From: an uncultured bacterium
Lineage (GTDB): Bacteria > Patescibacteriota > Patescibacteriia > Magasanikbacterales > GWA2-37-8
Length of the DNA stretch: 64,000 nt
Assembly (NCBI GenBank): GCA_937903605.1
Contig: CALCZC010000028.1
Span: 70,680-134,679, forward strand
Direction of reading: 5' to 3'
In this document: in pieces, positions 3,223 through 39,833 of the stretch
How positions within the stretch are numbered: position 1 is the stretch's first letter
Layout of the letters: every line of letters starts with the position of its first letter
The notes under the pieces: generated by a model
What the model was told of the DNA's origin: nothing
Databases searched by the model: none
Seen by the model: the letters and a program-made list of their open reading frames with translations, nothing else
Program-made: the position numbers and the translations under genes

Positions 3223-3294
3223 GGTCTCGTCGTTCAACGGATAGGACGCAAGCTTGCGGAGCTTGCAATCTAGGTTCGATTCCTAGCGAGATCA
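3223..3294 (+). tRNA. tRNA-Arg (anticodon read as GCG; unusual, verify)
   Basis: Acceptor GGTCTCG/CGAGATC (one GU pair). D-arm GTTC..GGAC. Anticodon stem CAAGC/GCTTG with loop TTGCGGA. T-arm CTAGGTTCGATTCCTAG. Confidence 0.7.
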
Positions 3295-3298
3295 CAAA

Positions 3299-3340
3299 AA
3301 TAATACCGCCCAAATAGGGGCGGTATTATTTTTGTTTTTC
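3299..3340 (+). terminator. rho-independent terminator (perfect palindrome AATACCGCCC-AAATAG-GGGCGGTATT plus T-run), bidirectional
   Basis: Sequence aaaataataccgcccaaataggggcggtattatttttgttttt directly after tRNA-Arg. Confidence 0.7.
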
Positions 3341-3362
3341 TCTCGCTCGGAGTCGAACTTGA
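3341..3362 (-). repeat. inverted partial copy of a tRNA 3' half (T-arm plus acceptor); right arm of an extended palindrome centred on the tRNA-Arg terminator
   Basis: Reverse complement is AAGTTCGACTCCGAGCGAGAGA, against tRNA-Arg GGTTCGATTCCTAGCGAGATCA. Confidence 0.5.
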
Positions 3363-3368
3363 AAGGGT

Positions 3369-3977
3369 TTAAAGTTCTTCCAAAAATTTATTTAAGTGAG
3401 TTAGAGTATCTGATTTTTGATTTACTTTTAAAGCGTTGCCCCCCAATCTAGAAAACACTTCGCAAGTATTTGCCGAATCTTCAATTAAATAAGCATCTGA
3501 TATTTTGCTGTTAAAAGATGTTAAAGAATCAATAAATTGTTTTCCGTTATCATCTGTTTTCAACATGCCGGTGTCATAAGAATTAATCACATGATCAAAT
3601 AATTTATCTAATTTTAAAGAGGGGACAGTAAAACGACTAAAACAATCCATATTGCCGGTAATAAGAACAGCATGATGTTTTTTTCTTAATTTTTGGATTA
3701 TTTCAATTGTTTTATTATCTACTTTCATTTTTTGGCAATCTGAGACAAACGATTCCCAAACTTCCTTTTCAGGTAAGTTGGCCCTCTCGCTTAATAATTT
3801 ATTAATTTCCTCCGAAGTATGTTTGCCTCGCATCCAATTTTTTATCATTTCTTTTTCCGTAACAAAAAAATCGGCCACAACCTGAGAAAATGTGGGGTTT
3901 TTTGCGCTTAAAGTTTCCCAGAAACGGGAAAAACAAAGCGTGCCGTCCCAATCTATAAAAACTACTTTTCTTTTCAT
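3369..3977 (-). CDS. HAD-superfamily hydrolase-like protein
   Basis: N-terminal FIDWDGTL (DxDGT motif I of HAD hydrolases). 202 aa. Confidence 0.65.
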   Translation of the reverse strand: MKRKVVFIDWDGTLCFSRFWETLSAKNPTFSQVVADFFVTEKEMIKNWMRGKHTSEEINKLLSERANLPEKEVWESFVSDCQKMKVDNKTIEIIQKLRKKHHAVLITGNMDCFSRFTVPSLKLDKLFDHVINSYDTGMLKTDDNGKQFIDSLTSFNSKISDAYLIEDSANTCEVFSRLGGNALKVNQKSDTLTHLNKFLEEL

Positions 3978-4172
3978 ATCTTTTATTATATCACGATAGT
4001 GCCCTTTAGCGTCTCATTTGCCTCATTTTTAATCGTTTTTTGGCTAATCTTAGACCCCGACCGAGGTGCTTAGCAAAATAAAATGAGACATATCCAAAAA
4101 AGCTCTCAACACATTGATTTTTACCTGTTCTAGACCGTAGTAGTTCATATAATTAAAATCGCCTAGTTTGTG

Positions 4173-4216
4173 GACGGTTTTATTTTTGTTTTTTCTCGAT
4201 AGGAATCGAACTTTTT
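4173..4216 (-). repeat. second copy of the tRNA-Arg trailer/3'-half-like unit, direct repeat of 3318-3362
   Basis: ggacggttttatttttgttttttctcgataggaatcgaactt versus ggcggtattatttttgtttttctctcgctcggagtcgaactt, about 80% identity. Reverse complement GTTCGATTCCTATCGAGA matches the tRNA-Arg T-arm/acceptor at 17 of 18 positions. Confidence 0.5.
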
Positions 4217-4252
4217 ATTTCAATTCTTTATGCTATAATATCAGCAGTAAAT

Positions 4253-6361
4253 ATGCTTTTATCCACCCCTGTTTCTCAATTGAATAAAGTCGGGAAAAAG
4301 ACCGCCGGCCATCTCAAACGTCTCAACATCAAAAATGTCGGAGATCTTTTGTCATACTTTCCTTTCCGCTACGAAGATTACCGCCAGATTTACAAAATAC
4401 GAGATTTACAAGAGGGGATGACTGCTACGGTTTTGGCGCGAGTGGAATTTATAAATAGTAAAAGAAGTAGACGACGTGGAAAAAACATTACTGAGGCTAT
4501 GGTGGGTGATGACAGCGGGTCTTTGCGCTTGATTTGGTTTAACCAACCGTATATTGCCAAGATTTTGCAAACAGGGGATCAAATATATTTATCCGGTAAA
4601 ATAAGCTCTGACATTTTTGGGGTCAAAATGAACAGTCCCCAATACGAGAAATTTAAAGAACGCCAAGCGCACACCGCGAGATTAGTGCCTATGTATCCGC
4701 TAACCCACGGTGTATCACAAAAACAGATGCGATTTTTGATGGAGCAGGTCTTACCTTTGACAGATAAAATGAAGGATTGGCTTCCTGAAAAGTTTATTGA
4801 AAAATATGATTTTGTACCTTTATCCGGAGCGGTGCGCGGAATTCATTTTCCAAACGATGAAATTGAACTAAAACAAAGCACAGACAGATTAAAATTCAAT
4901 GAATTGTTGCTTTTACAACTCAAAGCTGAAATCACGCGCGCTAGCAGGGCAAAAAGAAACGCGCCAAAGATGGAGTTTTTTGAAAACGAAATAAAAAATT
5001 TTGTTTTGGGTTTGCCTTATAAATTAACTGATACACAAAGAAGATCAGCCTGGGAGATTTTACAGGATTTACAAAAAGATATACCTATGAACAGATTACT
5101 TTCTGGAGATGTAGGTTCGGGAAAAACAATAGTGGCCGGTATTTGCTTGCTCAATGTGATTTTAAATGGTTATCAAGGTGTTTTGATGGCACCCACTGAA
5201 ATATTGGCCAATCAGCACTACAATACTCTTTGTAAATTACTTGGCGACAAAGTAAAAATCGCGATTTTAACAAATTCTAAATCTGAAATCATAAATCATC
5301 AATCTAAAATTGGGACAAAATTAGGCCAGAAGAAAGAAGTACTTGATAAGATTGGGCATGGTGAAGTAGACATCGTTGTCGGTACCCATGCACTGCTCGG
5401 TGACAAGGTGGGTTTTTCCAAATTGGGCATGGTGGTGGTGGATGAGCAACACCGATTCGGAGTAAATCAGAGAAAAACCATTAAAGAAAAAAGCGAAGGC
5501 ACGCATTTTTTGAGCATGACGGCTACGCCGATACCGCGATCTTTCGCTCTGATGGTTTATGGCGACTTGGATGTTTCTATTATTTCGCAAATGCCAATGG
5601 GGCGAAAAAAAATATTGACCAGGTTGGTGGAGGAGCATAACCGCCAAAAGGCTTATGAATTTATTCGCACCCAAGTGAAGCAGGGAAGGCAGGTTTTCGT
5701 GATTTGTCCGCTTATTGAAGAAAAAAAGAAAGAAGATGAAATAGAAATAACCAACTATCGTCCGGTTTGGAGCGCGTTGCTCGAGAAAAAAAGTGTGGTA
5801 AAAGAATTTGAAAAATTAAGCAAGACAGTGTTTCCCGATTTGAAAGTTGTTTATTTACACGGCAAAATGAAAACTGATGAAAAGGACGCGGTTATGGAAA
5901 AGTTTAAAAACAAAGAAGCTGATATTTTGGTGTCTACTTCCGTGGTGGAAGTCGGAGTGGATATTCCAAATGCTACGGTAATGATGATAGAAAATGCGGA
6001 AAGATTCGGATTGGCACAGTTGCATCAATTCCGCGGACGCGTCGGCAGGAGTGCTTACCAGTCGTATTGTTTTCTATTTACCCAAAACAGCGGACAAAAA
6101 GTTTCAGAACGTTTAAAATATTTTGAAAAAGAAAACAGCGGTTTCAAATTGGCGGAAAAGGATTTGGAAATTAGAGGGCCCGGTGATGTTTACGGTACAG
6201 CGCAAAGCGGAGAGGAAAATTTGCGTTTAGCTAAGCTTACTGATCAAGAATTGGTAAAAAAAGCGCGCGAAGTTGCCCGTGATATTGCGGTTGATTTTGA
6301 AAAATATCCGATTATAAAAAAGAAATTTTTTTCTTGGGAGAAAAGTGTACACTTAGAATAA
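4253..6361 (+). CDS. recG: ATP-dependent DNA helicase RecG
   Basis: N-terminal wedge/OB region. Helicase motifs GDVGSGKT, VVDEQHRFGV, MTATPIPRS, QLHQFRGRVGR. 702 aa. Confidence 0.9.
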   Translation: MLLSTPVSQLNKVGKKTAGHLKRLNIKNVGDLLSYFPFRYEDYRQIYKIRDLQEGMTATVLARVEFINSKRSRRRGKNITEAMVGDDSGSLRLIWFNQPYIAKILQTGDQIYLSGKISSDIFGVKMNSPQYEKFKERQAHTARLVPMYPLTHGVSQKQMRFLMEQVLPLTDKMKDWLPEKFIEKYDFVPLSGAVRGIHFPNDEIELKQSTDRLKFNELLLLQLKAEITRASRAKRNAPKMEFFENEIKNFVLGLPYKLTDTQRRSAWEILQDLQKDIPMNRLLSGDVGSGKTIVAGICLLNVILNGYQGVLMAPTEILANQHYNTLCKLLGDKVKIAILTNSKSEIINHQSKIGTKLGQKKEVLDKIGHGEVDIVVGTHALLGDKVGFSKLGMVVVDEQHRFGVNQRKTIKEKSEGTHFLSMTATPIPRSFALMVYGDLDVSIISQMPMGRKKILTRLVEEHNRQKAYEFIRTQVKQGRQVFVICPLIEEKKKEDEIEITNYRPVWSALLEKKSVVKEFEKLSKTVFPDLKVVYLHGKMKTDEKDAVMEKFKNKEADILVSTSVVEVGVDIPNATVMMIENAERFGLAQLHQFRGRVGRSAYQSYCFLFTQNSGQKVSERLKYFEKENSGFKLAEKDLEIRGPGDVYGTAQSGEENLRLAKLTDQELVKKAREVARDIAVDFEKYPIIKKKFFSWEKSVHLE

Positions 6362-12218: not shown

Positions 12219-14747
12219 TTAAATGACTATCAGTTTTTCTTTTTGTAATTTCAAACTGTAGTGCTTTTTAATTTTGCCTTTTAGTATAATCTCCGTCATT
12301 AATTCTTCCACTTGGTTTTCAATGAGAGTTTTTAGTTCGCGAGCGTTTTGATTTTGCGGTTTAAGTTGGTCTATCACCCAGGAGAGAGTTTTTTCCGGTG
12401 CTGTGATTTTAGTTTTATAATTCTTCAGTCTTTCGTTGAAAAGCTCTATTTCCAAGCGAGCTATCTTTTCCAAATGTTTTTTATCAAGTTGATTAAAAAG
12501 ACATATTTTATCCAAGCGATTGATAAACTCCGGAGAAAATCTTTCTTTTAGTTTTTCGGAAAGTTTATTTTGAGCGTCAAACCCTTTTTCTTTGGTATCA
12601 CCAAAACCGACCGCTCCTTTTTGTAGCTCGTCGGCAAACAGGGAAGTGGTCAATATTATTATAGCATGTTTTAGAGAAATTTTCTTCCCTGTAGAATCGG
12701 TGATAGATCCGTTTTCCAGCATCTGCAAAAGTAGCTTGGTAACGTCACGATGAGCTTTGTCTATTTCATCAAATAAAACAATACAATATGGATTCATCTT
12801 TATTCTATCGGTAAATTGGTTGGCTTCTTTATAACCCACATAACCGGCAGGGGAGCCTAACAATTTGGATACTCCGAAAGATTCGTTAAATTCACTCATA
12901 TCCAGTTTTATCAGAGCTTCGGATCCAGGATAAAGATTTTGTGCCAAAAGTTTGGCCAGTTCGGTTTTACCGGTTCCGGATACGCCGACAAATAAAAACG
13001 AGGCCAGTGGTTTTTGCGGGTCAGTCAAACCAAGTTGAGATTTTTCTATGGTTTTGACAATATTTTCTATGATATCATCTTGACCGACCAGTCTTTTTTT
13101 GAGATTTTCTTTGATTTTGGCAAAGCGATCTCTGTTGTCCAAAATCAATTCATTGGGTTGAGTGTTTATAATCTTGGCGATAGTTTGAAGAACATCCTTT
13201 TCCGTGACTGTGCCAAGATATTTTTCTTTTTGTTGAGTAATTTCTCTTTCTAAATTTTTTATTTCATGAGCTATTTTTATTTCATCTTCTTTCATAGTCA
13301 TGGCCAAACCAAAATCATTATCCAAGGCCGCCTTTTCTTTGTCAAAAGTTATTTTGTTTAATTTTTTACGCAATTGCCAAAGACGACTTTGTTTGGGGTC
13401 TGCGCCAAAACTCAGTCTTTTGGCCGAAGCTGTTTCGTCAATAAGGTCAATAGCTTTGTCAGGTAAAAATTTATCATTGATATAGCGATTGGCGAGATTA
13501 ACCGCGGAAACTATGGCTTTGTCGTTGATTTTTACTTGATGATATTTTTCATAATTTTTTTTCAGACCACTCAGAATTTTTACGGTTTCTTCCGGACTTG
13601 GTTCACGTACTATTATCGGTTGAAAACGGCGTTCCAACGCCGCATCACTCTCAATAAATTTTTTGAACTCCGCTCCGGTAGTACTACCGATACAACGGAT
13701 TTGTCCGCGCGCTAAAGCCGGTTTCAATATATTGGCCGCATCCATCGTTCCTTGCGAACTGCCGGCTCCGACAATATTGTGCAGCTCATCAATAAACAAA
13801 ATAATATTAGGATTTTGTAGAGTTTCTTCAATCACTTGTCGCAAACGTGATTCAAATTCTCCGCGATACATGGTGCCGGCGATGAGTAATCCCATATCAA
13901 GTGCATATATTTTTTTATATTTCATTATTTCCGGCACATCACCCTGTGTAATTTTTTTGGCCAAACCCTCAACAATCGCTGTTTTACCGACTCCCGGATC
14001 ACCAAGCAATATCGGATTATTTTTATTACGGCGACAGATTATCTGAACGAGACGATCAAGCTCTTTTTCTCGACCAATAACAGGGTCAATGTTTTTTTGT
14101 ATTTCTGGATTGGTTAATTCGGTCGCAAAAAAATCCAAGGCTGATTCTTGTTTTTGACCTATGGATTTTTTATTTTGTTTAGGCATGATTTCCGGAGGTA
14201 ATGGCATATCACTTTCAAAATTTTCTGAAATTTTATCCATGGTTTGGGATATCTCATCCATTTGCGGGAATTGCGAGGTGCCAACTAAAATATTTTTTAA
14301 TTGTGATTCTATGTCTGTGATAGAAATTTTACTTTGTTGCAGTATTTCCGAGATATCTCCGTCATTGGCTTGTAGTAGTGCGCTAAGTAAGTGTTCGGTA
14401 CCCAAAAAATTATGGTTATTTTCCGAAGCTATCAAAAAAGCTTTTTCCAAAATGGTTTTAGCAGACGGTGATAGCGGAGATAGTGATGCTTGGGCTGTTG
14501 TTTGAGAGGGGATTTGTCCGGGATTTTTACCATCTTCAGAAGGAATACTGAGAATTTTATTTTCCAGTAAATTTTCTTGTAGTTTGGCTTTATCCAATAT
14601 TTCATGAGCCAGTGAACCCTTTTCTTTAAACAGTGAAAACAAGAGATGAACAGGCCTAACCTCTTTTTGTTTGAGCTCTGTAGCCAGCTGGATGGCTTTT
14701 ACCAAAACATTTTTGAGATGATTGCTAAAACGTTCAGAAAGATGCAT
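12219..14747 (-). CDS. clpC: Clp/Hsp100 AAA+ chaperone ATPase (ClpC-like; ClpP-docking VGF loop present)
   Basis: Clp_N repeats. AAA-1 Walker A GDPGVGKTAIVEGLA. AAA-2 Walker A GVSGTGKTELAK. VGFG loop. Sensor-2 region. 842 aa. Confidence 0.85.
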   Translation of the reverse strand: MHLSERFSNHLKNVLVKAIQLATELKQKEVRPVHLLFSLFKEKGSLAHEILDKAKLQENLLENKILSIPSEDGKNPGQIPSQTTAQASLSPLSPSAKTILEKAFLIASENNHNFLGTEHLLSALLQANDGDISEILQQSKISITDIESQLKNILVGTSQFPQMDEISQTMDKISENFESDMPLPPEIMPKQNKKSIGQKQESALDFFATELTNPEIQKNIDPVIGREKELDRLVQIICRRNKNNPILLGDPGVGKTAIVEGLAKKITQGDVPEIMKYKKIYALDMGLLIAGTMYRGEFESRLRQVIEETLQNPNIILFIDELHNIVGAGSSQGTMDAANILKPALARGQIRCIGSTTGAEFKKFIESDAALERRFQPIIVREPSPEETVKILSGLKKNYEKYHQVKINDKAIVSAVNLANRYINDKFLPDKAIDLIDETASAKRLSFGADPKQSRLWQLRKKLNKITFDKEKAALDNDFGLAMTMKEDEIKIAHEIKNLEREITQQKEKYLGTVTEKDVLQTIAKIINTQPNELILDNRDRFAKIKENLKKRLVGQDDIIENIVKTIEKSQLGLTDPQKPLASFLFVGVSGTGKTELAKLLAQNLYPGSEALIKLDMSEFNESFGVSKLLGSPAGYVGYKEANQFTDRIKMNPYCIVLFDEIDKAHRDVTKLLLQMLENGSITDSTGKKISLKHAIIILTTSLFADELQKGAVGFGDTKEKGFDAQNKLSEKLKERFSPEFINRLDKICLFNQLDKKHLEKIARLEIELFNERLKNYKTKITAPEKTLSWVIDQLKPQNQNARELKTLIENQVEELMTEIILKGKIKKHYSLKLQKEKLIVI

Positions 14748-37217: not shown

Positions 37218-37307
37218 AGATTGGTAGGGGTTAAATTTGTATTTTACTACAAAAGTATAATACAGTAGGGTAGGTGAATGTTACAAGTTACGATCCTTGT
37301 TTTAATC

Positions 37308-37335
37308 TTGACATTTTTTATATTTATGGTATAAT
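37308..37335 (+). promoter_or_regulatory. consensus promoter TTGACA-N16-TATAAT driving tRNA-Glu
   Basis: cttgacattttttatatttatggtataat, about 20 nt upstream of the tRNA 5' end. Confidence 0.6.
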
Positions 37336-37354
37336 AGCCCTCGACAATTTATTT

Positions 37355-37426
37355 GGCCTCATCGTCTAATGGTTAGGACACCACGCTTTCAATGTGGTAA
37401 TAGGGGTTCGATTCCCCTTGGGGCTA
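37355..37426 (+). tRNA. tRNA-Glu (anticodon TTC)
   Basis: GGCCTCATCGTCTAATGGTTAGGACACCACGCTTTCAATGTGGTAATAGGGGTTCGATTCCCCTTGGGGCTA. Anticodon loop CTTTCAA. T-arm AGGGGTTCGATTCCCCT. Confidence 0.85.
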
Positions 37427-37432
37427 CATAAT

Positions 37433-37470
37433 AACAAAAGACCCCTGTTCATCAGGGGTCTTTTGTTATT
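37433..37470 (+). terminator. palindromic terminator AACAAAAGACCCCTGttcaTCAGGGGTCTTTTGTT
   Basis: Direct reading. Immediately after tRNA-Glu. Confidence 0.7.
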
Positions 37471-37795
37471 ATTATAGTTTTTCAAGGGGAATCGAACAAG
37501 GAAAGGGAGAAAACGTGAGTTTTCTCTTGCTGAGGAAAGGTTGTTGGAAAACCCGAAGGTTTTCCAAATAGGAGGCCGAAGGACGACGACGTGAGTATTC
37601 CCCTTGGGCTACATAAAATAAAATACTCCGACTTGCTCGGGGTATTTTATTTTATCTAGTCGTAAAGCGAGAATCGAAGGGTGCGAGCGAGCAAGGAGTG
37701 ATAGCGACGTAGCGAGGCGACGAAAATATGCCGGTGGCATATTTTCGGGCACCCCGGACGCGATTCCCCTTGGGGTTACATAAAATAACACACTC
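37471..37795. repeat. degenerate tandem copies (about 170-185 bp unit) of the tRNA-Glu trailer: direct 3'-end fragments ATTCCCCTTGGG(G)CTACATAA(A)ATAA at 37593-37616 and 37763-37787, and inverted T-arm fragments at 37478-37495 and 37668-37685
   Basis: gtattccccttgggctacataaaataaaatactccgacttgctcggggtattttatttt and cgcgattccccttggggttacataaaataa compared with the genuine cgattccccttggggctacataataa. Inverted copy caaggggaatcgaac is the reverse complement of GTTCGATTCCCCTTG. Confidence 0.6.
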
Positions 37796-37898
37796 ATTAT
37801 AAGCTGGATTTTTTGTATTGTCTTCAAATAGCCAAAAGAGTATAATATCCATATAAGCCAAATGGCTAAATTAAAGGCCTTTTTTGTCGACTTAAGAT

Positions 37899-39833
37899 AT
37901 GAAAGTCAAAAAGTTTAAAAAACCCATAGATAAAAATAAAGAACAGGAGAATGTCCAAGAATTGCTTTTTAAAAAAATGCCTATAGGGTGTATTTTGTGG
38001 GATGAAAAATTTAGAGCCAAATTATGGAATCCGGCGGCCGAGAAAATTTTTGGTTATTCTGCCAAAGAAGCCTTGGGTAAACACCCTTATGATATTATAG
38101 TTCCCAAATCCGCCCAAAAACAGGTAACTACAATTTGGCGCCGTCTTTTGCGGGGCGACACTTCTGCCAATTTGATTAATGAAAATAACACCAAAAAAGG
38201 AAATAAGATTATTTGCAGTTGGACCAATACACCAATAAAAAAAGAAAAAAATAACGTGATCGGTGTTTTGTCAATGGTAAAAAACATAAGTGAAGAACAA
38301 AAAAATAAAAACGCTTTAATTGAATCAGAAAGACGTCTTGCTGAAGTGATTGATTTTTTACCGGATGCCACTTTTGTTTTAAATAAAGAAGGCAAAGTTA
38401 TTGCTTGGAATAGAGCAGTTGAAAAAATGACCAAAACCAAAGCAAAAAAAGTTTTGGGTAAAGGAGATTATACTCATGCGATGCCTTTTTATGGCAGGCG
38501 TAGACCGGTTTTGGCCGATCTTATTTTGCAACCGGAACTTTTGCAGAAAATTATTCAAAATAAAAAATATCCTTTTATTAAAAAAGAAAAAGATACTTTG
38601 GTTACAGAAATTTTGTTAAAAAATGTTGGTGGTAAAGATATTTTTGTCTGGGCAAAAGCCGCCCCTCTTTATAACGCAGCTGGTAAAGTTTCCGGTGTTG
38701 TAGAATCTGTACGTGACATTACGGATAAGAAAAAATTGGAAAAAGAATTGCACGAGCGAGCCAACAGATTAGAAGAGTTGACTGCCAAAGACGAGGCAAT
38801 CCTTTGGTCATTGGGAGAAAGCTTGCGAGTATTTGACATTACGGGAAAAATTTTGAAAGTTAATCGAGCCTTTGAGAAATTGACCGGTTGGACCATGGAG
38901 GAAGTTTTGGGTAAAAAAGTTGAAGAAATTTTACCCCAAGAAGACGAGAGAGGTAAAAAGATTTCTTTGGGTGCACGCAATGTTTTTAAGGTTTTATCCG
39001 GTAAAGTCGGACAAATAGAAATTTCCGGTTTTTATATTCGTAAGGATAAGACAAAATTTCCAATGAGCGGGGTGATTACTCCGGTTTATTTGAAAAATGA
39101 AATTATTGGTGCGATTGAGGTTTTTCGTGATATTACCAAAGAAAAGGAGCTTGATAAAGCCAAAAGCGAATTTGTCTCATTAGCCTCGCACCAGTTACGT
39201 ACCCCACTGTCAATTATCAAATGGACTTTAAATTCTCTGGATAAACAAGATGAATTTTTTCAAAAAAATCAAGAAAAAATAAAAGACGTATATGAATCAA
39301 ACGAGCATTTGATTGCGCTGGTAAACAACCTTTTAAATATTACTAGGATAGAATCAGGAAAAATAATCGTTAATAAAAAGAAAGTCGGTTTATTAAATTT
39401 GGTAAAAGAGGCTTGTAAAAATTGTCAAAAACAAGCGCAAAATAGAAAACAAAAATTAAAATTTATTTTTGAAGGTAAAATAGACCATGTTTTTGTTGAT
39501 CCGATTCTTTTTTCCGAAGCTTTCTGTAATGTTTTGGGTAATGCTTTCAATTACGGTTTGGATAAATCAACGGTTACGGTTAAAGTAAAAAGAATTAACG
39601 GAGATTATCTGATTTCTGTTCATAATTTCGGTCCTGTTATTGGAGAGCAAGAAAAAAAGAAAATTTTTACCAAATTTTATCGCGGTCCAGCTTCTCCTGC
39701 TAGAAATTTTTCCGGGAGTGGTTTAGGTTTATTCTTTACCAAAGCCACGGTAGAAGCTAATGGTGGTAAAATCTGGTTTGAATCTATAAAAAACAAAGGT
39801 ACGACTTTTTATTTTACTGTGCCCATAAAATAA
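37899..39833 (+). CDS. PAS-domain sensor histidine kinase
   Basis: Several PAS-like segments. H-box FVSLASHQLRTPLSII. HATPase N/G boxes (NAFNYG, GSGLGL). 644 aa. Confidence 0.8.
   Translation: MKVKKFKKPIDKNKEQENVQELLFKKMPIGCILWDEKFRAKLWNPAAEKIFGYSAKEALGKHPYDIIVPKSAQKQVTTIWRRLLRGDTSANLINENNTKKGNKIICSWTNTPIKKEKNNVIGVLSMVKNISEEQKNKNALIESERRLAEVIDFLPDATFVLNKEGKVIAWNRAVEKMTKTKAKKVLGKGDYTHAMPFYGRRRPVLADLILQPELLQKIIQNKKYPFIKKEKDTLVTEILLKNVGGKDIFVWAKAAPLYNAAGKVSGVVESVRDITDKKKLEKELHERANRLEELTAKDEAILWSLGESLRVFDITGKILKVNRAFEKLTGWTMEEVLGKKVEEILPQEDERGKKISLGARNVFKVLSGKVGQIEISGFYIRKDKTKFPMSGVITPVYLKNEIIGAIEVFRDITKEKELDKAKSEFVSLASHQLRTPLSIIKWTLNSLDKQDEFFQKNQEKIKDVYESNEHLIALVNNLLNITRIESGKIIVNKKKVGLLNLVKEACKNCQKQAQNRKQKLKFIFEGKIDHVFVDPILFSEAFCNVLGNAFNYGLDKSTVTVKVKRINGDYLISVHNFGPVIGEQEKKKIFTKFYRGPASPARNFSGSGLGLFFTKATVEANGGKIWFESIKNKGTTFYFTVPIK

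Follow-up and report, generated by a model that had tools for sequence, protein, structure and literature searches.

Inverted tRNA fragments beside a Patescibacteria tRNA-Arg gene are probable scars of a small mobile element

A tRNA-Arg gene in a low-GC (36.6%) genome segment of an uncultured member of the Patescibacteria is followed by two short inverted copies of its own 3' end, and between them lies a single gene, for a hydrolase of the HAD superfamily. We analysed this arrangement in a stretch of 64,000 nucleotides (contig CALCZC010000028.1; here called the window, with position 1 its first letter) and compared it with loci from other assemblies, which carry L numbers below. Our comparison suggests that the arrangement is probably a decayed scar, left when a small mobile element, non-coding and abundant in Patescibacteria, inserted twice in succession. 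We label this element X (65-190 nt, GC-rich, no open reading frame). The two inverted tRNA-Arg fragments, B and C, are best read as junction scars of X insertions and not as attachment (att) sites of an integrative element.

Two inverted tRNA-Arg 3' ends flank a hydrolase gene

From left to right, the locus consists of tRNA-Arg (with its 3' segment A), a terminator T, fragment B, the first 10 nt of X, the minus-strand HAD gene and its leader, what may be the degenerate end of a direct copy, a second terminator T', fragment C and recG (Table 1). T is shared by tRNA-Arg and the convergent HAD gene, and its 18-nt arms (3294-3311 and 3318-3335) are 100% complementary. The palindrome extends outwards to 32-nt arms (3274-3305 and 3327-3358) that are 78% complementary, and the plus strand at 3340-3360 reads CTCTCGCTCGGAGTCGAACTT, the reverse complement of a diverged tRNA-Arg 3' copy. 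Read directly from the sequences, B is identical to tRNA-Arg at 17 of 21 positions; C matches it at 17 of 18 positions over GTTCGATTCCTA(G/T)CGAGA and at 18 of 21 over a longer stretch. The T-rich trailer forms part of the repeat, with 91% identity between 3318-3339 and 4172-4193. A preliminary description of this stretch had reported the perfectly palindromic terminator behind the tRNA 3' half, the diverged inverted T-arm and acceptor copy immediately after it, the one long imperfect palindrome centred on the terminator and the second copy with its trailer, and we found each of these as described, the palindrome at 3274-3358 and the second copy with trailer at 4172-4213.

The motif AAGTTCGAYTCCNANCGAGA, with up to three mismatches allowed, occurs three times in the 64 kb, at 3272-3291 (plus), 3341-3360 (minus) and 4194-4213 (minus). 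Shuffled sequences give a chance expectation of 0.05, and none of 100 shuffles produced three. Relative to each other, B and C form a direct repeat on the minus strand, one on either side of the HAD open reading frame, and HAD is the only gene in the 854-bp interval between the copies. The preliminary description of HAD as flanked by direct repeats was correct for the two fragments relative to each other, but both are inverted relative to the intact tRNA-Arg.

Table 1 Features of the tRNA-Arg and tRNA-Glu loci of the window
Feature	Position	Strand	Remarks
tRNA-Arg(GCG), intact	3223-3295	+	ARAGORN; Rfam RF00005, 56.8 bits
Segment A	3273-3295	+	Last ~23 nt of tRNA-Arg; template of the other copies
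Terminator T	3294-3339		Palindrome ACAAAAATAATACCGCCC / GGGCGGTATTATTTTTGT, 6-nt loop, then T-tract; inverted-repeat search, terminator scan
Fragment B	3340-3360	-	Inverted tRNA-Arg T-loop, T-stem 3' strand and acceptor 3' strand; reads AAGTTCGACTCCGAGCGAGAG
X stub	3361-3370	+	GAAAGGGTTT, first 10 nt of X, overlapping the HAD stop codon; same sequence runs into full X in L100 and L095
HAD-superfamily hydrolase gene, 202 aa	3369-3977	-	PF00702; in place of X body and direct tRNA copy
HAD 5' leader/promoter region U	3978-4132	-	Conserved; nearly identical in L088
Possible degenerate direct copy D	4133-4148	+	GACCGTAGTAGTTCAT, end of leader U; junctions compared in window, L100, L088 and L095
T', degraded mosaic second terminator hairpin and T-tract	4149-4194	+	
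Fragment C	4195-4213	-	Second inverted tRNA-Arg 3' copy; reads AAGTTCGATTCCTATCGAG; same position in L088 and L100
recG promoter and recG	4234-6361	+	Right-hand unique flank; -10 TATAAT at 4234-4239; recG start 4253
tRNA-Glu	37355-37427	+	
tRNA-Glu palindromic terminator	37428-37472		Perfect
Inverted tRNA-Glu fragment	37484-37497		
X at tRNA-Glu	37498-37596	+	
Direct tRNA-Glu 3' copy	37597-37612	+	
Second palindromic terminator	37613-37655		
Degenerate second unit	37667-37679; 37762-37779		Inverted fragment; direct copy

A related strain carries X where the window carries HAD

Exact-protein look-ups recovered the same strain from several samples. In a scan of GTDB genomes with RecG, the closest species representatives were about 53% identical, besides a 2-kb fragment of the same species. 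L088, from a related species, has a HAD protein 91% identical to that of the window. Its gene order agrees with the window's and B and C stand in corresponding positions; its hairpins differ in sequence and its B lacks the acceptor half. L100 (RecG 98% identical) has the same flanks and no HAD. Its order is ...CGAACTTGAAAGGGTTT, X (about 125 nt, GC-rich and hairpin-rich), a direct tRNA-Arg 3' copy ATTCTCCTAGCGAGATCAC, a perfect palindromic terminator, a second inverted fragment and the recG promoter. The check on relatives proposed in the preliminary description, absence of HAD with a single tRNA-Arg trailer, was thus borne out in its first part, but in L100 the place is taken by X, the direct tRNA-Arg copy and a terminator. 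A search of the fetched loci for the exact motif GACGACGTGAG returned L100 only, the motif being too narrow.

L095 (RecG 83%) has a hairpin, B, X and a direct copy adjoining the 3' end of a HAD paralogue, and the identical 10-nt X stub abuts the stop codon of that paralogue. Because this junction of X stub and HAD stop codon is common to the window, L088 and L095, it is old. L099 (RecG 80%) has tRNA-Arg, a hairpin and an inverted fragment, followed by an acetyltransferase gene, TerC, two tRNAs and another gene before recG. The inverted fragment is kept after tRNA-Arg in L088, L095 and L099. On this comparison, HAD was not delivered by the tRNA-derived repeats; in some strains it stands where others have the body of X.

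The region ahead of C fits this picture. The left arm of T' resembles T' of L100 and its right arm resembles that of T (3318-3339); an intact hairpin stands at the same position in L088 and L100. The segment at 4133-4148 is possibly a degenerate direct tRNA copy, with matches at six of eight terminal positions, and it lies where the 3' end of the direct copy (...GCGAGATCAC) meets the hairpin in L100.

L223, from another sample, shows no difference from the window across tRNA-Arg, T and B. It stops at about window position 3365, within the first bases of the X stub, as would be expected of two coexisting alleles. Other contigs also break at, or within a few bases of, junctions between inverted fragment and X, at both the Arg and the Glu loci: besides the end of L223, L100 starts at about 3352 and L227-L229 start at 37486-37559. 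These breaks fit either coexisting alleles or repeat-induced assembly breaks, and populations appear to contain both the HAD and the X allele.

In distant Patescibacteria (L010, L013, L015, L024 and L030), tRNA-Arg(GCG) also lies directly upstream of recG and in the same orientation, often with a tRNA-Ser nearby. As the adjacency of tRNA-Arg and recG is conserved and the contents differ among relatives, the intervening space is a variable hotspot. One of its occupants in L099 (6052-6138, minus), beside tRNA-Ile(tat), is a tRNA to which ARAGORN assigns no identity and whose anticodon loop has 8 nt (cttg).

The window itself contains a better-preserved parallel of the Arg locus, without a cargo gene, in the array at tRNA-Glu (37355-37779). 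An X profile built from metagenome-derived copies matches 37500-37568 of this array in nhmmer with E = 7e-6.

X is a widespread family of structured, tRNA-associated elements

A metagenome scan with a 19-nt core pattern of X gave matches on at least 120 contigs, with up to four copies in 14 kb, and the same pattern gave none in the viral contigs scanned. The profile of metagenome copies also matches L037, L039, L040, L056, L059, L071 and L082. The X of L100 aligns with those of L155 (z = 9.9) and L151 (z = 7.3) and with the tRNA-Glu X of the window (z = 4.6). The conserved sequence runs GGAAAGGGG-YCGGGRAAAC-loop-GTTTYCCCG ... AAACCG-loop-GGTTT ... GCGAAGCGAC, and contains two hairpins with compensatory changes. 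Hairpin H1 is retained in 37 of 37 sequences, with some compensatory changes, and H2 occurs with 27 different stem sequences in which pairing is preserved. RNAalifold on a MAFFT alignment found H1 only, H2 being misaligned, and H2 was assessed with a custom script. Across metagenome loci L102-L221, the H2 loop covaries with an upstream GG(N)GGAA segment (GGUGG-GCAA, GGCGG-GCUG, GGAGG-GUG), which suggests a tertiary or alternative pairing within X.

The position of X relative to genes is strongly polarized. Among the matches listed, a co-oriented tRNA lies at most 200 nt upstream of 65 of 127 X copies (34 anticodons in all), an opposite-strand tRNA lies upstream of none of the 127, and the copies that are not behind tRNAs follow tmRNA-like 3' ends or the ends of protein genes. 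On inspection, one order recurs at other tRNAs: the tRNA, a terminator (not always present), an inverted fragment, X and a direct fragment. Among the 148 tRNAs of 82 Patescibacteria sequences (81 loci and the window), the 3' 19 nt of a tRNA was recopied downstream 20 times and upstream once. Within the single genome of L037, the X copy at tRNA-Lys looks, by eye, almost the same as that at tRNA-Glu, and the flanks of both are tRNA-specific. As far as the sequences can tell, this is the hallmark of an element that is mobile, or at least is being actively copied, and that has target-made flanks.

No family corresponding to X was found in Rfam 15 when the whole window and six loci were searched at the gathering threshold, at which only tRNAs and one group I intron passed; in E-value mode, window 37300-37900 and L037 3000-3500 gave only weak, chance-level matches. 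A limited literature search on repeats of the candidate phyla radiation (CPR), MITEs (miniature inverted-repeat transposable elements), tRNA-linked elements and snap-back reverse transcriptases returned no description of X, although such a search cannot prove absence. By inspection of the sequence we also rejected a transfer-messenger RNA (tmRNA)-like domain, RNase P, signal recognition particle RNA, the ZTP riboswitch and the hammerhead, as well as retron msr/msd, the guide RNA of TnpB/IscB, IS200/IS605 ends and integron attC.

Insertion leaves a long duplication and an inverted target copy

Direct repeats of 12-92 nt flank 70 of the 112 evaluable X copies among the matches listed, and several are perfect or near-perfect (88/88, 85/85, 63/64, 61/61 and 57/58 positions identical). 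At tRNA targets, the repeat has its start within the T-loop or T-stem, 12-25 nt ahead of the tRNA end; in most cases it stops 0-2 nt past that end, and in fresh copies it reaches beyond the terminator. The first repeat copy is separated from X by a short stretch that is the reverse complement of the beginning of the repeat. Such an inverted tRNA 3' copy (at least 10 nt) abuts the X core in 44 of 62 tRNA-linked copies among the matches listed, compared with 0 of 287 far control windows and 5 of 62 when the same window was tested in the direct orientation. Where it was found, it lies 0-3 nt from the X core in 51 of 53 copies, and in 27 of 53 independent copies its X-proximal end is sharply fixed at about 22 nt from the end of the tRNA. 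Protein-coding genes, too, have inverted copies of this kind behind them, tied to X, and in L114, L170 and L138 such a copy is present without any hairpin between it and its template.

The sequence after the second repeat copy is unrelated, and B would therefore have been made at insertion. The junction between the X 3' end and the direct copy shows microhomology (...GTGA followed by GATTCC, where X 3' ...GTGAGAT overlaps the T-loop GAT). Longer, protein-coding versions of X, sought through the direct repeat up to 8 kb away, were not found; L151, a candidate for one, turned out to carry an ordinary X with unrelated genes behind it.

Applied to the window, this signature would make the Arg locus an old site that was hit twice and partly overwritten, so that only the first 10 nt of X remain beside B. 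The rest of X and the direct tRNA copy would have been replaced by HAD and its leader, and a co-occurring allele would have kept X, the direct copy and the terminator. Renewed insertion at the tRNA-proximal site would build arrays, which would explain the unit of direct copy, terminator and inverted fragment beside recG in L100, and C in the window. The arrangement in the window could have arisen by deletion between repeated units of B and X stub, as present in L095.

Several points weigh against this reading. The Arg locus of the window holds 10 nt of X, and its assignment rests on alleles of other assemblies; of these, L100 begins inside B (at about window position 3352), its left flank being inferred from the matching break of L223. 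The X profile is weak on the X copies of L100 and L095 (E of about 0.3), whose membership comes from pairwise alignment to a divergent subfamily. Replacement of the X body by HAD is left unexplained. No true empty site was found for any X copy in the 229 fetched loci, which gave only self- or low-identity matches, and no transposase, integrase or dedicated reverse transcriptase is linked to X. At some junctions simple hairpin-primed extension fails, because the T-tract separates B from the terminator stem. The evidence is wholly comparative sequence analysis, and no RNA or DNA intermediate was observed.

Alternative origins of the inverted fragments

The inverted copy might instead be a selected RNA structure that pairs with the tRNA-Arg 3' half in read-through RNA and so provides a site for processing (by RNase III, for example) or a hairpin that controls maturation. 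The preliminary description had raised a designed RNA that competes with the tRNA fold, and in silico the competitor wins: 3223-3365 is predicted to form a long hairpin and not a cloverleaf (-76 kcal/mol, z = -10.9), with the T-arm and acceptor sequestered. However, B lies past the T-tract of the terminator, so most transcripts should end before it, and 4 of the 21 positions of B have departed from the tRNA with no compensating change. The inverted fragment is indeed retained in L088, L095 and L099, and the succession of tRNA, hairpin and inverted fragment recurs at other tRNAs; yet in L088 the acceptor half of the fragment is gone, and in L037 the inverted copy matches, by eye, the gene and not the diverged downstream copy. 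Identical junction fragments also stand behind protein-coding genes, tied to X. We therefore regard selection for the structure as unlikely, and the position of B, its uncompensated drift and the copies at protein genes argue against the element of design in the earlier proposal. If the fragments are scars of X, the long RNA hairpin masking the tRNA 3' half would be a by-product of insertion, and it is possible, as part of such a model, that the target-made stems release X RNA from read-through transcripts.

Local instability independent of any element is improbable for other reasons. Here, template switching at the palindromic terminator (quasi-palindrome extension) would have made the inverted copy and slippage would have duplicated it, X being an unrelated neighbour. 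The perfect centre and imperfect outer arms of the palindrome are what decay of a perfect inverted duplication on its unconstrained side should leave, and the terminator hairpins differ between close relatives, implying rapid turnover. An unrelated neighbour, however, does not account for an inverted copy that abuts the X core with a gap of 0-3 nt in 51 of 53 cases and is missing from all 287 control windows, nor for perfect long target duplications that flank X and accompany it. Inverted copies are also present where no hairpin intervenes (L114, L170 and L138).

The preliminary description saw in the locus the footprint of a tRNA-targeting integrative element, that is, att duplication. In the classical form of this reading, a tyrosine-integrase element would have brought HAD into tRNA-Arg, with the repeats as attL and attR and the integrase since lost. 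Two repeats of about 42 nt from a tRNA 3' end do flank one gene whose presence is polymorphic, and the space between tRNA-Arg and recG differs among relatives (HAD here; acetyltransferase, TerC and tRNAs in L099). But att repeats are co-oriented, and both repeats here are inverted relative to the intact tRNA; a co-oriented tRNA 3' copy is seen only in the HAD-less allele of L100, which is not an empty att site but holds X, that direct copy and a terminator. The same geometry recurs without cargo at tRNA-Glu and at dozens of tRNAs, with repeat lengths of 12-92 nt, unlike a fixed att core. As the preliminary description noted, there is no integrase: within about 10 kb, Pfam labels in L001 and L088 give only ClpB, RadA, RecG, LytR, Der, Pth, DprA and similar genes. 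Mobile DNA at the tRNA 3' end thus survives from that proposal, but HAD as att-bounded cargo does not, given the inverted copies, the L100 allele and the cargo-less recurrences, and we consider it very unlikely. Recent mobility of HAD is made unlikely by the very observation that the preliminary description had named as telling against it, since L088 shares the arrangement, HAD included, with a HAD protein only 91% identical.

Decayed minus-strand duplicates of the tRNA-Arg gene (pseudogenes) can be all but dismissed: although the fragments are tRNA-derived and each has terminator-like sequence after it, both begin at the same T-loop position with no 5' tRNA sequence, the boundary recurs, just as sharp and again some 22 nt from the end of the tRNA, in 27 of 53 independent copies at other tRNAs, and neither ARAGORN nor Rfam detects anything at either fragment.

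A possible copy-type mechanism

The signature of X would be compatible with insertion by copying. Extension would begin from a nick or 3' end located at the gene end or just past it, first by copying the target backwards (snap-back), which would yield B, next by copying the X template, and last by a return to the target, which would leave a long duplication of variable length. The product would read target, inverted start of target, X, target. A DDE transposase or integrase would be a poor fit, because the duplications are long and variable and an inverted target copy arises de novo; the likeliest engine would be a trans-acting enzyme, either a reverse transcriptase or some other polymerase that switches templates. 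Reverse transcriptases are documented to perform snap-back synthesis and template switching, the bacterial group II intron-like G2L4 enzyme among them (bioRxiv 10.1101/2022.03.14.484287).

We tentatively propose that X could be a bacterial non-autonomous element of a new kind. A trans-acting template-switching polymerase or reverse transcriptase would copy it into nicks or 3' ends where highly transcribed genes end. X would make its own closing stem (the inverted target copy) and a long target duplication, and would ride on tRNA read-through without destroying tRNAs; the stem would release X RNA. The fuller proposal is a doubtful one, much less probable than the reading of B and C as scars of X.

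The same genome encodes a reverse transcriptase (RVT_1) beside bAvd, belonging to a diversity-generating retroelement (DGR), at 18195-19576 of L001, about 4 kb past the left edge of the window and about 8 kb from HAD; the proximity is circumstantial only. The DGR reverse transcriptase gene has a different length in strain L002.

Relation to known elements

By its sequence pattern, X behaves like a small non-autonomous mobile element whose insertion signature is unlike those of MITEs, repetitive extragenic palindromic (REP) sequences, integron cassettes and att sites. With the att sites of islands and prophages (P4/lambda-type) it shares a tRNA 3' target starting in or near the T-loop, a tRNA kept intact by the duplicated 3' part, and arrays. 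X differs in being about 100 nt long and non-coding, in having no integrase, in a duplication of 12-92 nt that includes unique downstream sequence, in the extra inverted copy and in its use of non-tRNA ends as well. Like MITEs, Correia/NEMIS elements, REP sequences and bacterial interspersed mosaic elements (BIME), RUP and BOX, X is short, non-coding, multi-copy, hairpin-rich and intergenic, often beside terminators and presumably mobilized in trans. MITEs, however, come with terminal inverted repeats of their own and duplicate a short, fixed length of target, whereas the 'inverted repeats' of X consist of target sequence, differ at every site, and accompany duplications that are long and variable (12-92 nt).

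Elements that use target-primed reverse transcription (TPRT), such as long and short interspersed nuclear elements (LINE/SINE) and R2, together with snap-back reverse transcriptases, resemble X in variable and sometimes long duplications, junction microhomology and strict polarity to the target. Inverted target sequence is moreover the expected product of snap-back synthesis, as seen at X. Unlike TPRT elements, X has no linked reverse transcriptase, A-tail or internal promoter, and the resemblance is one of signature, not of tested mechanism. We know of no TPRT-like element of the X kind in bacteria. The primer-binding site of retroviral and long terminal repeat (LTR) elements is likewise complementary to the final ~15-20 nt of a tRNA and borders a mobile element; the complement at the edge of X, by contrast, omits CCA, covers the T-loop and matches the adjacent tRNA instead of a fixed primer, and there are no LTRs. 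In integron attC arrays and CRISPR, too, cassette-like units (for X, the element or a gene) alternate with imperfect palindromes of variable centre, and a whole palindromic unit is duplicated on insertion at a CRISPR repeat, as at X. X differs from both in having no IntI or Cas1 and in palindrome arms that are target-specific and not element-borne. The attC cores RYYYAAC/GTTRRRY are unmatched, the palindrome ends being GTTCGAT ... ATCGAAC, and there is no integrase gene.

If this reading is right, the streamlined Patescibacteria (CPR) carry an abundant, unannotated small mobile element with an unusual signature of long variable duplication and inverted target copy. It would account for puzzling partial tRNA copies downstream of tRNAs (about 1 in 10 tRNAs in the sampled loci), for recurrent assembly breaks beside tRNAs and for the variable hotspot behind tRNA-Arg, where genes such as HAD come and go. 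The signature would point to copy-type or template-switch insertion in bacteria, and in annotation such fragments should then not be taken for att sites or prophage borders.

The HAD gene, its leader and other observations

HAD is present in L088 (91% identity at the amino-acid level) and absent from the L100 allele. Compared with L088 3734-4342, the gene (3369-3977) is mosaic: its 5' two-thirds show nearly 100% DNA identity and its 3' third is clearly more diverged, a pattern that indicates recent recombination. A second case of a gene where the X body should be is found in L056 (3720-5496, minus), in which the X copy of tRNA-Ile is cut after its first hairpin and a 572-aa open reading frame follows.

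The HAD leader of about 150 nt (3978-4148, minus) is near-identical at L088 3545-3735. On reading of the sequences, it is also homologous to the region upstream of a deoxynucleoside kinase (dNK)/thymidylate-kinase-like gene in L095 (about 5890-6040), which places two different nucleotide-metabolism genes under one conserved 5' leader. The leader has no match in Rfam and could be a cis-regulatory RNA.

Other insertions were seen near tRNAs. In L013, at about 3940-4080 and about 4440-4620 on the minus strand, two tRNA-Ser genes are each followed by a pseudo-copy of the 3' two-thirds of the tRNA, which contains, in the T-loop at TTCG^CGAA, a 38-nt insert with two GC-rich hairpins that is different from X. 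A Harrisonbacteria contig, L082, carries a group I intron (Rfam, 62.6 bits) near a tRNA gene, at 13761-13985 on the minus strand.

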